Of a DNA stretch of 51,845 nucleotides, positions 10,477-13,785 are shown piece by piece. Source of the stretch: Escherichia coli (GTDB lineage: Bacteria > Pseudomonadota > Gammaproteobacteria > Enterobacterales > Enterobacteriaceae); the NCBI RefSeq assembly GCF_003334315.1, contig NZ_QOWR01000030.1; one strand, written 5' to 3'. Numbering within the stretch: the stretch's first letter is position 1; the number at the start of each line of letters is the position of its first letter. A program made the translations under genes and the position numbers. Under the pieces are notes generated by a model. That model was not told where the DNA came from. It did not search any database and saw only the letters and a list, made by a program, of their open reading frames with translations.

Positions 10477-10650
10477 TTAAAACAGTGAAAACAACAGCGC
10501 CACCGGGAAACTCATCGGCCATGTTGCCCCCACCAGAAAGGCGCTTAAGAAACGGATGCGTTTCTTATCGTGAGAAAGAAACCAGGTGATAAGAAATGCG
10601 ATTGCTGCCATAACCGCATAAAAAACAAGCATGTGTTGATAGAGAGACAT
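10477..10650 (-). CDS. ortT: orphan membrane toxin OrtT, 57 aa
   Basis: ORF 10477..10725 trimmed to ATG at 10650 (MSLYQHMLVFYAVMAAIAFLITWFLSHDKK...). Confidence 0.8.
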   Translation of the reverse strand: MSLYQHMLVFYAVMAAIAFLITWFLSHDKKRIRFLSAFLVGATWPMSFPVALLFSLF

Positions 10651-10844
10651 GTACGGGCGTCCAGCCAGATGAATAAAACGCGCGCAAATATGCGTCATTT
10701 TTTGACGTGCATCAAGTTTTTTCACCAGTTTGAGAAAAAATCATCAAACAGCAACTTGCCCTTATCCATCTTCAGAATGAGTATTATTGCGGATTTTCTT
10801 AACCCGTACTATACACATAGGGGCAATGATAAAAGGTGGCAAAA

Positions 10845-10940
10845 ATGAATGTTTCCAGTAGAACTGTAGTACTGATAAATTTCTTTGCTGCTGTTGGTTT
10901 GTTTACTCTTATCTCTATGAGATTTGGCTGGTTTATTTGA
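10845..10940 (+). CDS. yncL: small membrane protein YncL, 31 aa
   Basis: Not in the ORF track (too short); ATG at 10845 preceded by aaaaggtgg; translates to MNVSSRTVVLINFFAAVGLFTLISMRFGWFI. Confidence 0.7.
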   Translation: MNVSSRTVVLINFFAAVGLFTLISMRFGWFI

Positions 10941-10962
10941 TGTAGTGATTTTGCACGCAGCA

Positions 10963-10997
10963 CGTACTGTCAGAGAAATCAGTGCTCTGACAGTACG
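10963..10997. terminator. 13-bp perfect inverted repeat hairpin downstream of yncL, at the edge of the AT-rich island
   Basis: cgtactgtcagag-aaatcagtg-ctctgacagtacg; U-tract weak. Confidence 0.4.
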
Positions 10998-11341
10998 CAA
11001 GATCTTCTCATACTCTCCAGGTTTACAACATCATCCTTAATATTTACTTCTTTTTGCTGGCATCTACATTGAAATGAGTAGAAAACATCCCCCTACTGTC
11101 GTCTATACAAACAGTTTACTGATTCAAACGGAATCTTGTTTTCACATTTTTCTATTATGAATACTTTATACGCGCGGGAGTCTATAAATGCTTTATACTT
11201 TCAAGGAATAACGTAAATATAAAAAGATGGCGTAAAGTATATGCATGGCAGGATGTTTGCAACCTCCTTGATGACGCTGCCCCATTGAAATTGCAAACCC
11301 CGCCCTGGTTATCTTGCCCATTTATCATGCAAAACAGATAA

Positions 11342-12151
11342 TTATAGGCCTCTGAATACCTCAGAAAGATTGAATTTTTTATAGTCCCTCTCTTGAATAT
11401 TTCCATTTGATATCAATCGATTCATCTCTTCAACAAAATAATTTATATCATCACACTTGTTATTATCCGGAAGATCTGAGTAGTTATAATTCCACCATTT
11501 TATTCTCAACAGTTCATCAATAACATTTGAATCAAACCTAAATCTGATTATTTTTGCAGGAACTCCTGCAACTATGGCATATGGGGGCACATCTTTGGTA
11601 ACAACGGAATTGGCAGCAATAACAGCACCATCACCTATTGCGATGCCACCTTTCAATACAACATCATTTCCTATCCAGACATCATTTCCTATAATCGGAT
11701 TTTCAGGTTTGATAATGAATGGTTTCAATGTCCAGCTACGTTCAAATTCACTCATAGCAAACTTATCAAATTCACCGTTATAAGTCATCATGTGAGTAGT
11801 AAAACGATTCAAAGGATGATTTTCACCCATTATTTTTACATTTGATGCAATACTACAAAATCGACCTATACGTATATTCCCTGAAAAATGGCAGGTCGGA
11901 AATGAAAAAGCGCCGACACTGGAGAAATTTTTCACAGGCATTGTTGAATATTCTTCAGCAATAACATTATCTTCAATTGTTATCTTGTCACCTTTTGAGA
12001 AAAGAAATAAATTCCTTTCTTTATACGACTTCTTCCCCTTATGATTTAAAAAGATTTTATTATCCATACAAAACTCAAAGTGTTTTTTCGTCCATCTGAA
12101 GGTAAGGGTTTTATTTTTATCTTCCGTGAATTTGTACAATTGAACTTTCAT
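11342..12151 (-). CDS. hexapeptide-repeat xenobiotic acetyltransferase (XAT class, Vat/CatB-like), 269 aa
   Basis: ATG-initiated ORF; C-terminal IGNDVWIGNDVVLKGGIAIGDGAVIAANSVVTKDVPPYAIVAGVPAKIIRFRFD...IKWWNYNY closely parallels the VatD/CatB hexapeptide core and KWWNW tail; ENHPLNRF lies at the catalytic-His loop position; gene and flanks are strongly AT-rich. Confidence 0.75.
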   Translation of the reverse strand: MKVQLYKFTEDKNKTLTFRWTKKHFEFCMDNKIFLNHKGKKSYKERNLFLFSKGDKITIEDNVIAEEYSTMPVKNFSSVGAFSFPTCHFSGNIRIGRFCSIASNVKIMGENHPLNRFTTHMMTYNGEFDKFAMSEFERSWTLKPFIIKPENPIIGNDVWIGNDVVLKGGIAIGDGAVIAANSVVTKDVPPYAIVAGVPAKIIRFRFDSNVIDELLRIKWWNYNYSDLPDNNKCDDINYFVEEMNRLISNGNIQERDYKKFNLSEVFRGL

Positions 12152-12360
12152 TGTTAATACTTCTACTTATAAATTATTAGTTTAATAACGATACTCTAAA
12201 GCCTTATGCTAATCAACTGTGACAGGATGAAAAATCGCCCTCAAACATTTAGCCTAATTTTTACGCTAGTTATTAATGTAATCATTCTAATACTTAACCG
12301 CCATTAAACTCAGAACCTAAAACGATAGTGGCCGTCCTATAACAGCCACTAACATCTAAC

Positions 12361-13785
12361 TTAATGTTTAACCATGACGTGGCGGACGACGGTGTAATCC
12401 TCCAGCCCATAAAGTGACATATCCTTGCCGTAACCAGAAAGTTTCTGTCCACCGTGCGGCATTTCACTTACCAGCATGAAATGGGTATTGACCCAAGTAC
12501 AACCATATTGCAGCCGTGCGCTGACGCGATGCGCCCTGCCCACATCTTTCGTCCATACCGAAGATGCAAGTCCGTACTGGCTGTCATTCGCCCAGTTCAC
12601 CACCTGTTCTTCGTTGTCGAAGAGCGTAACACTCACTACTGGACCAAATACCTCTTTTTGCACGATGGCATCGTCCTGTAATGCGCCAGCCAGCAGCGTC
12701 GGCGCATAGTAATAGCCATTACCCTTGCGCTTTTCACCGCCAGTGATCACTTTGATGTGCCCTGTCGCTTTCGCCTCTTCTACTGCCTTGCTGACGCGTT
12801 CGAGATGCGCCAGCGAGCTTAAAGGTCCAAGCTCCGTAGACTCGTCATCTGGCGCACCAGATTTTAACGTTGCCACCGCAGCACCCAGTTTTTCCACCAG
12901 CGTATCGTAAATGCCTTTTTGCGCGTAGATCCGACAAGCCGCAGTACAATCCTGTCCAGCATTGTAATAGCCAAATGTACGTACACCTTCGACCACTGCT
13001 TCAATATCCGCATCATCAAAAACAATCACTGGCGCTTTGCCACCAAGTTCCATATGAGTACGCTTAATGGACGACGCGGTATGGCTGATGATGTGCTCGC
13101 CGGTGGCGATAGAGCCCGTCAGCGACACCATCCGCACTTTGGGATGACCGGTCAGCGGATCACCCACCGTTTTGCCTCTGCCAAACAGTATGTTAATCAC
13201 GCCTGCCGGGAAGATATCTTTCGCCAGCTCTGCCAACTTCAACGCGGTCAGCGGGGTAATTTCTGATGGTTTAAGCACTACGCAGTTCCCTGCCGCCAGC
13301 GCCGGAGCAAGTTTCCACGCGGCCATCATCAGCGGATAATTCCACGGTGCGATAGAAGCCACGACCCCCAACGGATCGCGACGGATCATCGAAGTATGAC
13401 CTTCAAGATATTCACCTGCCGCCAGACCATTCAGACAGCGCGCCGCACCCGCGAAAAAGCGAAAAACATCGACAATCGCCGGGATTTCATCATTGAACGC
13501 ACTATGCAGCGGTTTGCCACAATTACGGGACTCCAGTTCGGCAAAAACCTGACCATTTTCTTCGATAACATCAGCCAGTTTCAGCAGACATTCCGCACGC
13601 ACTTTCGGCGTGGTTTGCCCCCATTCGGCAAATGCTGCATCTGCCGCGCGCACAGCAGCATCGACCTGCTCTGCGGATGCCTCGGCAATTTCCAGTAAAA
13701 CGTCCCCCGTTGCCGGATTATAGACAGGCTGTTTTTCCCCTTCGCCGCTAACCAGTTCTCCGTTAATCAGTAACTTATGTTGCAT
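12361..13785 (-). CDS. patD: gamma-aminobutyraldehyde dehydrogenase, 474 aa
   Basis: ORF track; aldehyde dehydrogenase family with catalytic Cys/Glu context; length matches PatD. Confidence 0.95.

Follow-up and report, generated by a model that had tools for sequence, protein, structure and literature searches.

We find that a discrete, AT-rich islet of 1313 bp separates yncL from patD at positions 11047-12359 of the window (the whole 51,845-nucleotide stretch of Escherichia coli DNA analysed here), and that it is best read as a single-origin accessory islet whose one gene encodes an XAT-class acetyltransferase of its own subfamily, distinct from Vat, CatB and ApmA proper; we put the probability of this account as a whole at about three in four. 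The window is colinear with the K-12 MG1655 genome at 99.4-99.9% identity, the islet being the sole break in colinearity, and the spacing between yncL and patD is 1420 bp in the window versus 96 bp in K-12. The gene is absent from K-12, in agreement with the original prediction. That prediction also let the islet begin at the hairpin following yncL, which captured the insert itself but included too much, as the DNA from the hairpin to position 11046 is ordinary core spacer (Table 1). The hairpin stem is the same in K-12 and in all carriers, and B1-type carriers differ at three loop bases (10982-10984). An 11-bp direct repeat, identical at 10 of 11 positions, lies on both sides of the islet, and the two pieces into which BLAST divides the window/K-12 alignment have 11 bp of K-12 sequence in common.

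The composition of the islet bears out the AT-richness that had been noted by inspection. Its G+C content is 0.341 (11047-12355) against 49% for the contig, and that of the acetyltransferase ORF alone is 0.332, with a GC3 of 0.29 compared to 0.53 in patD. Across 1.3-kb windows of the contig (mean G+C 0.492, sd 0.038), the islet lies approximately 4 sd under the mean, and no other 1.3-kb stretch of the window is as low. The single predicted gene was recovered as an intact frame of 269 aa with an ATG start, and the motifs quoted for it (IGNDVWIGNDVV, GDGAVIAANSVV, PPYAIVAGVPAKIIRFRF and the KWWNYNY tail) are all present in the translation. It shares its strand with patD, which lies upstream of it. 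A promoter scan found a candidate sigma-70-like promoter (TTTAGA, a 16-nt spacer and AATAAT) at 12200..12173, and a terminator-like hairpin (12351..12326) directly follows the patD stop codon. The segment 3' of the gene yielded no convincing ORF, RNA family or terminator, and an Rfam search of positions 10000-13000 with E-values up to 1 returned no RNA family.

Table 1 Features of the yncL-patD interval and its core neighbours, in window coordinates
Feature	Position	Strand	Basis
yncL, 31 aa; left core neighbour, outside the islet	10845..10940	+	K-12 annotation via colinear alignment, ORF list
Hairpin after yncL, perfect 13-bp inverted repeat; core, present in K-12	10963..10997	.	Inverted-repeat search
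Core spacer of ~30 bp adjoining the junction, ending in the left repeat copy	11016..11046	.	Alignments
Left repeat copy CTTAATATTTA, diverged duplicate of the patD stop region	11036-11046	.	BLAST overlap, alignments
Islet non-coding segment 3' of the acetyltransferase gene, 37.6% G+C, E. coli-specific	11047..11341	.	
XAT-class hexapeptide-repeat acetyltransferase gene, 269 aa, ATG start	11342..12151	-	ORF list, profile and structure searches
5' upstream block travelling with the acetyltransferase gene	12152..12236	-	Cross-genus blastn, promoter scan
Islet right-end non-coding DNA, ~32% G+C	12237..12359	-	
Right repeat copy CTTAATGTTTA, holding the patD stop codon (12361-12363)	12360..12370	.	
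patD, aminobutyraldehyde dehydrogenase; right core neighbour, context only	12361..13785	-	

Counting as carriers those genomes with at least 80% of the islet, the gene is found at the yncL-patD junction in 1149 of 5426 complete E. coli genomes (~21%). By identity, 943 fall at or above 99%, 202 at 95-99% and 14 at 90-95%; nearly all places at which the islet occurs are chromosomal (1168 of 1170), and the gene lies between yncL and patD in each of the five carrier loci examined. Carriers are annotated by NCBI with a 'CatB-related O-acetyltransferase', and the exact window protein has been deposited. This is an ordinary, already catalogued accessory gene and, annotated as it is in those 1149 genomes, it cannot be called unnoticed. 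The 'CatB-related' label itself stems from similarity to CatB. The same PGAP name is borne by a gene of the kps capsule locus in ST131, the only E. coli hit of our literature searches, and consequently the label does not imply antibiotic modification. Our literature searches found nothing specific on the PGAP name, on WP_000867987 or on the subfamily, and no substrate shown for any member.

Beyond E. coli, orthologues with 70-79% identity occur in Citrobacter, Salmonella, Cedecea and 'Enterobacter' Ag1, and one with 47% identity in Rahnella. Their neighbours are unrelated; in Citrobacter, Salmonella, Cedecea and Rahnella the gene stands alone on the chromosome, and the orthologues in other genera have a G+C content of 33-44% amid surroundings of ~50%. 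DNA homology between genera ends at the coding sequence plus ~85 nt upstream (blastn to window 12232-12236), the 5' block being homologous in Citrobacter and Raoultella copies, and the unit that moves between genera is probably just the coding sequence and this promoter-bearing leader of ~85 nt. Foreign composition, presence in a fifth of complete genomes and AT-rich orthologues in unrelated contexts together favour the horizontal acquisition that had been proposed. Among GTDB representatives, no other Escherichia species was found to carry the gene, a comparison that, with one genome per species, has little power for an accessory gene. Members of the subfamily are also seen in O104:H4, O111, Shigella flexneri and Salmonella, with relatives in Listeria, Macrococcus and Enterococcus. 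A 'Collinsella' MAG also contains a copy at 99% identity, apparently a contaminant introduced by binning.

The window, the B1-type alleles and the 95% allele have identical junctions, and one junction with an 11-bp direct repeat, common to all carrier haplotypes examined, indicates one old origin. The adjoining core spacer differs from K-12 at about eight positions in every islet-bearing haplotype, which indicates tight linkage to the insert. We therefore favour a model in which 1313 bp, together with an 11-bp duplicated target, would have been inserted once, long ago, in an ancestral E. coli, precisely where patD has its 3' end, the islet now segregating as a presence/absence polymorphism. 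The ORF list holds no transposase or integrase within the insert, and no terminal inverted repeats were detected at its ends (alignment score 7, against a mean of 7.7 for shuffled sequence). Consequently, with end repeats no better than those of shuffled sequence, we make no positive claim that the insert arose from a transposon or MITE. A recent deletion between the flanking repeats as the source of the empty site in K-12 is likewise unsupported, given that several of its bases match neither the left nor the right repeat copy and the site is thus not a simple chimera of the two.

Comparison of alleles shows, from substitution patterns, that the acetyltransferase gene is under purifying selection: dN/dS between divergent alleles comes to 0.12-0.13, with a dS of 0.094. 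In two divergent E. coli alleles the coding sequence is 97.3% identical, compared to 93.9% for the non-coding segment 3' of it, and the 5' block is 96.5-100% conserved among E. coli alleles. A contrary reading is that the islet is a decaying remnant of old foreign DNA, without present function. Several genomes in which the gene is disrupted by IS1 or partly deleted, one allele with an 18-bp in-frame duplication, three non-synonymous and no synonymous changes between the window allele and the majority allele, and the lack of any known phenotype would all fit such decay. However, none of the four divergent alleles examined has a broken ORF, the low dN/dS and the better conservation of the coding sequence than of neighbouring islet DNA run against it, and full-length orthologues are kept in many genera, so that we regard decay as very unlikely.

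On sequence and modelled structure, the product of the gene is an XAT-class hexapeptide-repeat acetyltransferase of Vat/CatB-like type, as originally predicted. It matches the Pfam families Hexapep (1.8e-9) and Hexapep_2 (7.5e-6), and its AF2 model, built as a monomer, has beta-helix strands and a pLDDT of 90. The best sequence matches in the PDB are Vat(D) (6e-30), Vat(A) (6e-28), CatB (1e-26) and ApmA (6e-23), rather than sugar or O-antigen acetyltransferases, and the top Foldseek matches are Vat(D), CatB8 and Vat(A). H112, within GENH where the central loop insert starts, aligns with H82 of Vat(D), within GANH, and W159 with its W121, residues described as critical to the acetyl subsite (bioRxiv 10.1101/2025.01.31.635826); the XAT histidine has been identified as the conserved catalytic one (PMC7885111). 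Across 42 homologues H112, P113, D157-V158-W159 and W219-W220 are invariant, the last pair lying in the KWW motif at residues 218-220. As an acetyl-CoA-dependent acetyltransferase with a left-handed beta-helix, the protein would, by homology, form a trimer with active sites at the subunit interfaces, in which His112 may serve as general base and Trp159 may line the acetyl subsite, the acetyl group probably passing to a small-molecule acceptor, at a hydroxyl or, less likely, at an amine.

Which family the protein belongs to was judged by the curated NCBIfam bit-score cut-offs. The Vat model (NF000311) gives 125.2 bits against a cut-off of 300, the CatB model (NF000490) 102.8 against 350 and the ApmA model (NF000084) 83.2 against 550, and with scores so far under the cut-offs membership of these three resistance families is rejected. 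Instead, the protein is a member of a separate subfamily of 260-270 aa with extra N- and C-terminal segments. The nominal top match, to the phosphonate-cluster hexapeptide transferase TIGR03308 (129.5 bits over residues 92-228), also falls under its cut-off of 201.65; no phn genes were seen nearby, either in E. coli, with yncL and patD on the two sides, or in the other genera examined, and this assignment was rejected on both counts. Scoring under every curated family cut-off, the protein can be called XAT-like by homology, which says nothing on the acceptor. Instead of a xenobiotic drug, the acceptor might be a sugar, such as the non-metabolisable ones on which LacA and Maa act, or a glycan that is secreted or exposed at the surface (O-antigen or capsule), an option that we consider unlikely. 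The sugar and polysaccharide models WbbJ, WcaF, NeuO, LacA and Maa score much lower, at 41-69 bits against cut-offs of 192-347, and these low scores, together with the occurrence of a lone gene in unrelated contexts in five genera, led us to reject membership of a polysaccharide or sugar O-acetyltransferase family.

That the protein modifies an antibiotic is no more than a guess, on account of the sub-cut-off Vat, CatB and ApmA scores and of a chloramphenicol-susceptible carrier. The carrier in question is the O104:H4 strain 2009EL-2071, in which the majority allele WP_000867987.1 is intact and for which the chloramphenicol MIC is 4 µg/ml (PMC3486847); it follows that the gene, when natively expressed, does not work as a CatB. 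A type B chloramphenicol acetyltransferase conferring low-level or inducible resistance could be argued from the PGAP name, the match to the CatB model and the presence of CatB structures among the top Foldseek matches, yet both the shortfall against the CatB cut-off and this susceptible strain, at its native level of expression, tell against it, and we judge it highly improbable.

A cryptic Vat-type streptogramin A O-acetyltransferase, the phenotype of which would be masked by the intrinsic streptogramin resistance of E. coli, has for its model the chromosomal vat(F) of Yersinia. Vat(D) is the best sequence match among solved structures (32-35% identity), the Vat model is the second-best NCBIfam match, and conservation extends to the catalytic His, the Trp and the KWW tail. 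Nonetheless we think this enzyme activity improbable: the Vat score is less than half its cut-off, the central loop is about 6 residues longer, and the antibiotic-site positions Y37, L108, P109 and K124 of Vat(D) align with differing residues, T70, F145, I146 and N162, the alignment being uncertain in the loop. In addition, the pocket could be altered by the extra N-terminal segment, much as the N-terminal region of ApmA remodels its substrate pocket (PMC7885111).

It is also conceivable, by analogy with ApmA, an XAT enzyme found to act on apramycin, that the subfamily confers, so far unnoticed, resistance to a class of drugs with which XATs have yet to be associated, a proposal that we hold to be quite unlikely. 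The window allele has E110, I146 and N249 in place of G110, T146 and D249 of the majority allele; were the proposal true, the substitutions G110E and T146I, which lie beside the active site, could represent substrate adaptation.

As it stands, the islet matters little; single-gene islets rich in AT are numerous in E. coli, and this is one of them. The account that we prefer, a single-origin accessory islet with an acetyltransferase of its own subfamily, nevertheless makes it a clear case of a presence/absence polymorphism of long standing, next to which lies a divergent, tightly linked flank of 30 bp, and it draws attention to an XAT subfamily that roughly one complete E. coli genome in five carries and that is also present in several pathogens. 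The subfamily escapes resistance-gene callers because it scores under the family cut-offs; should a drug prove to be its substrate, it would constitute a widespread silent resistance reservoir.

With respect to known systems, the islet resembles other single-gene AT-rich accessory islets of E. coli in its low G+C content, its patchy distribution over strains and its position between core genes without mobility genes, and has no feature setting it apart from them. AT-rich xenogeneic islets of E. coli are typically bound by H-NS, and native expression of the gene may accordingly be weak or H-NS-silenced. CatB and PaXAT (PDB 1XAT, 6PUB, 8J40) share with the islet protein the XAT fold and the catalytic His (Foldseek E-value ~1e-11, target-normalised TM-score ~0.6), but the islet protein has extra terminal segments and a carrier strain that is chloramphenicol-susceptible. 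ApmA (PDB 7JM0), an aminocyclitol N-acetyltransferase, is likewise of the XAT class, of similar length (274 aa) and endowed with an added N-terminal region, yet only residues 70-230 or 72-230 align, to 94-257 or 96-257 of ApmA respectively, leaving the N-terminal regions unmatched, and the Foldseek TM-score is 0.37-0.41; islet-carrier strains are susceptible to gentamicin and kanamycin (PMC3486847). Vat(D) and Vat(A) (PDB 1KHR, 4HUS) have in common with the islet protein a left-handed beta-helix with a central loop insert, the catalytic His, the acetyl-site Trp, the GNDVWIG and GDGA(V/I)IAA repeats and the C-terminal KWW helix region, the identity extending over about 170-190 residues. Compared to Vat(D), the islet protein is 60 residues longer, its residue 61 aligning with Vat(D) 28 and its residue 230 with Vat(D) 192 of 209. 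The original prediction had placed an extension of about that size at the N-terminus, where in fact ~33 of the extra residues lie, with ~22 at the C-terminus and about 5 in the central loop.

Alignment of the whole window by BLAST to the corresponding 50 kb of MG1655 yields two colinear pieces, 135-11046 (99.85% identity) and 12360-49945 (99.39%), which share 11 bp of K-12 sequence, and the insert is therefore placed at 11047-12359 (1313 bp), opposite an empty site in MG1655. Accordingly, the yncL-patD spacer measures 96 bp in K-12 versus 1420 bp in the window. The original prediction of an AT-rich segment, absent from K-12 and carrying a lone minus-strand gene for a 269-aa protein, is thus upheld, and the open reading frame (ATG start) includes the motifs quoted there. 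G+C falls to 0.28-0.37 over 10900-12300 and is back at 0.52-0.55 from patD onwards. The insert stands at 34.1% (measured over 11047-12355) and the acetyltransferase ORF at 33.2%, with a GC3 of 0.29 versus 0.53 in patD, and the islet forms the minimum of the window, approximately 4 sd under the mean (1.3-kb windows over the contig: mean 0.492, sd 0.038). A second AT-rich stretch, at 1-2000 (37.7% G+C in 1-1000, 42.6% in 1001-2000), spans yncH/yncG and adjoins the rhsE remnant; for positions 1-134, megablast found nothing in the K-12 region used for comparison. We detected no transposase or integrase among the ORFs of the insert, and no terminal inverted repeat beyond chance at its ends, which are flanked by a diverged direct repeat.

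Positions of features of the islet and of related loci
Feature	Position	Sequence	Remarks
Direct repeat, left copy	11036-11046	CTTAATATTTA	Flanks insert; diverged duplicate of right copy
Acetyltransferase ORF	11342..12151, minus		269 aa
Duplication site of L017	corresponds to 11661-11692		18-bp in-frame tandem duplication in that allele
Promoter-like site	12200..12173	TTTAGA, 16-nt spacer, AATAAT	Only candidate rightly placed, inside the ~85-nt upstream block
Terminator-like hairpin (weak)	12351..12326		Between patD and acetyltransferase gene
Direct repeat, right copy	12360-12370	CTTAATGTTTA	Flanks insert; holds patD stop codon
Salmonella enterica orthologue	6001-6810 (L013/L014)		Variable region downstream of proBA; adjoins pagK-like and NEL-type (LRR E3 ligase) effector genes

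The islet is of one origin, and old. The same junction sequences occur in the window, in carriers of the B1-type majority allele WP_000867987.1 (loci L002 and L018), in the variant locus L017, and in the 95% allele (L016). Moreover, positions 11016-11046, the ~30 bp of core spacer that border the insert on its left, hold ~8 differences from K-12, common to all islet-bearing haplotypes, while the rest of the 10.9-kb left flank holds only ~8 more (~16 in total); divergence of this depth is to be expected next to a long-standing insertion/deletion polymorphism, from which recombination cannot separate the stretch. The alternative that the K-12 empty site is a recent deletion is unsupported, since the site cannot be read as a simple chimera of the left and right repeats. 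Between the window and 95% alleles, the acetyltransferase gene shows a dS of 0.094 and a dN of 0.012 (dN/dS 0.13), with a dS of 0.185 in the adjacent patD of the same strain pair, so the insert has been diverging together with its flanks under purifying selection; identity is 97.3% across the CDS and only 91-94% in non-coding islet DNA. Despite a K-12-like backbone (patD dS 0.006 versus K-12, 0.02 versus B1), the window islet shares 99.5% identity with the form carried by B1, a combination that fits spread between lineages by homologous recombination. The gene was not found in representative genomes of other Escherichia species (a weak test, with one genome per species).

The acetyltransferase is a common accessory gene, already annotated and previously known. 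By megablast, 1159 of 5426 complete E. coli genomes contain the insert (at least 80% of it in 1149), nearly always on the chromosome, with identities of at least 99% in 943 genomes, 95-99% in 202 and 90-95% in 14. Carriers include O104:H4, O111:H8 and O111:H11, members of the protein cluster are also labelled Shigella flexneri, every copy among those listed is named 'CatB-related O-acetyltransferase', and proteins identical to that of the window already exist at NCBI (OWD59639.1, RCQ28111.1). A 99%-identical copy on a 1576-bp contig of a 'Collinsella sp.' MAG (JAIJJM010000727.1) is most likely E. coli contamination. Several genomes have IS1 or IS1A inside the gene (matches H1, H31, H32, H73, H90) or partial deletions of it (H88, H90), and it is therefore dispensable in some lineages.

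The window allele departs from the majority allele by G110E, two residues ahead of the catalytic His112, T146I, at a residue aligned with the antibiotic-site P109 of Vat(D), and D249N; this split of three non-synonymous to no synonymous changes is not significant, given ~4 non-synonymous sites per synonymous site. In L017 (NZ_CP075665.1, STEC2018-553), an 18-bp in-frame tandem duplication adds one GNDVWI hexapeptide (275-aa product), and arose at a 14-nt direct repeat, ACATCATTTCCTAT, whose two copies lie 18 bp apart in the window (repeat D6). The yncL hairpin keeps its 13-bp stem in all of the window, K-12, the 95% allele and B1-type carriers, with a loop that varies at 10982-10984, reading CAGTGCT in the first three and CAACTCT in the last.

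Full-length orthologues exist in Citrobacter (76-79% identity), Salmonella enterica (~79%), Cedecea and 'Enterobacter' Ag1 (70-71%), and Providencia, Kluyvera, Pectobacterium, Rahnella and Dickeya (47-57%), with more distant ones in Listeria, Macrococcus, Mammaliicoccus and Enterococcus. In the Citrobacter, Cedecea, Rahnella and Salmonella loci the orthologue is always a lone gene with neighbours that differ per genus: GNAT and nucleoside phosphorylase genes in Citrobacter, a preceding chemoreceptor gene and nearby colicin gene in Cedecea, chemoreceptor and M20 peptidase genes in Rahnella, and, in Salmonella, an insertion site different from that of E. coli. Orthologue G+C is 33-40% in these hosts (44% in Rahnella) versus ~45-53% in surrounding DNA. 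Nucleotide homology between genera is limited to the CDS and ~85 nt upstream, a block bearing the promoter-like site, and consequently the transferable unit is promoter plus gene. Since the gene lies downstream of patD on the same strand, with only a weak hairpin between, read-through expression is possible. H-NS silencing of AT-rich islet DNA is plausible.

Judged by sequence, the protein is XAT-like, yet belongs to no curated family. Pfam reports hexapeptide repeats only, and the best NCBIfam matches all lie under their curated, family-specific cut-offs: TIGR03308 (129.5 bits, cut-off 201.65), Vat (125.2, 300), CatB (102.8, 350), ApmA (83.2, 550) and the sugar/O-antigen acetyltransferases WbbJ (69, 243) and LacA (59, 347), which are thus not the best match. 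The predicted Vat/CatB-like classification was essentially right: phmmer against PDB finds Vat(D) (6e-30), Vat(A) (6e-28), CatB (2e-26) and ApmA (6e-23), and an AF2 model based on an alignment of 42 homologues (mean pLDDT 90) has only Vat, CatB and ApmA structures among its top 50 Foldseek matches in PDB. The PGAP name is also given to a kps capsule-locus gene of some ST131 strains (bioRxiv 10.64898/2025.12.15.689991), and hence the label alone is no sign of antibiotic modification.

What the evidence supports best is a trimeric, stand-alone acetyltransferase dependent on acetyl-CoA, which would act on a small-molecule acceptor with His112 as general base. A CatB-like function is opposed by the O104:H4 strain 2009EL-2071, which has the intact majority allele, a chloramphenicol MIC of 4 µg/ml and no resistance to gentamicin or kanamycin, being susceptible to both (PMC3486847). 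A glycan or sugar acceptor is possible too, with gene context speaking against it. Streptogramin A is a possible acceptor, but the Vat cut-off is not reached, and residues T70, F145, I146 and N162 differ from those at the antibiotic-site positions of Vat(D). The antibiotic-modifying role suggested in the original prediction is no more than putative, and the chance that a drug-modifying activity has gone unrecognised in the subfamily seems small.

The extra ~60 aa noted in the original prediction are real, but not all N-terminal: relative to Vat(D), the protein is longer by ~33 aa at the N-terminus, ~22 aa at the C-terminus and ~5 residues in a loop. Both terminal extensions are kept within the subfamily, and neither sequence nor structure comparison matched them to the N-terminal domain of ApmA. 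The family alignment shows no variation at H112, P113, D157-V158-W159 and W219-W220; H112 and W159 align with H82 and W121 of Vat(D), critical residues of its acetyl subsite (bioRxiv 10.1101/2025.01.31.635826), the histidine being the conserved catalytic residue (PMC7885111).
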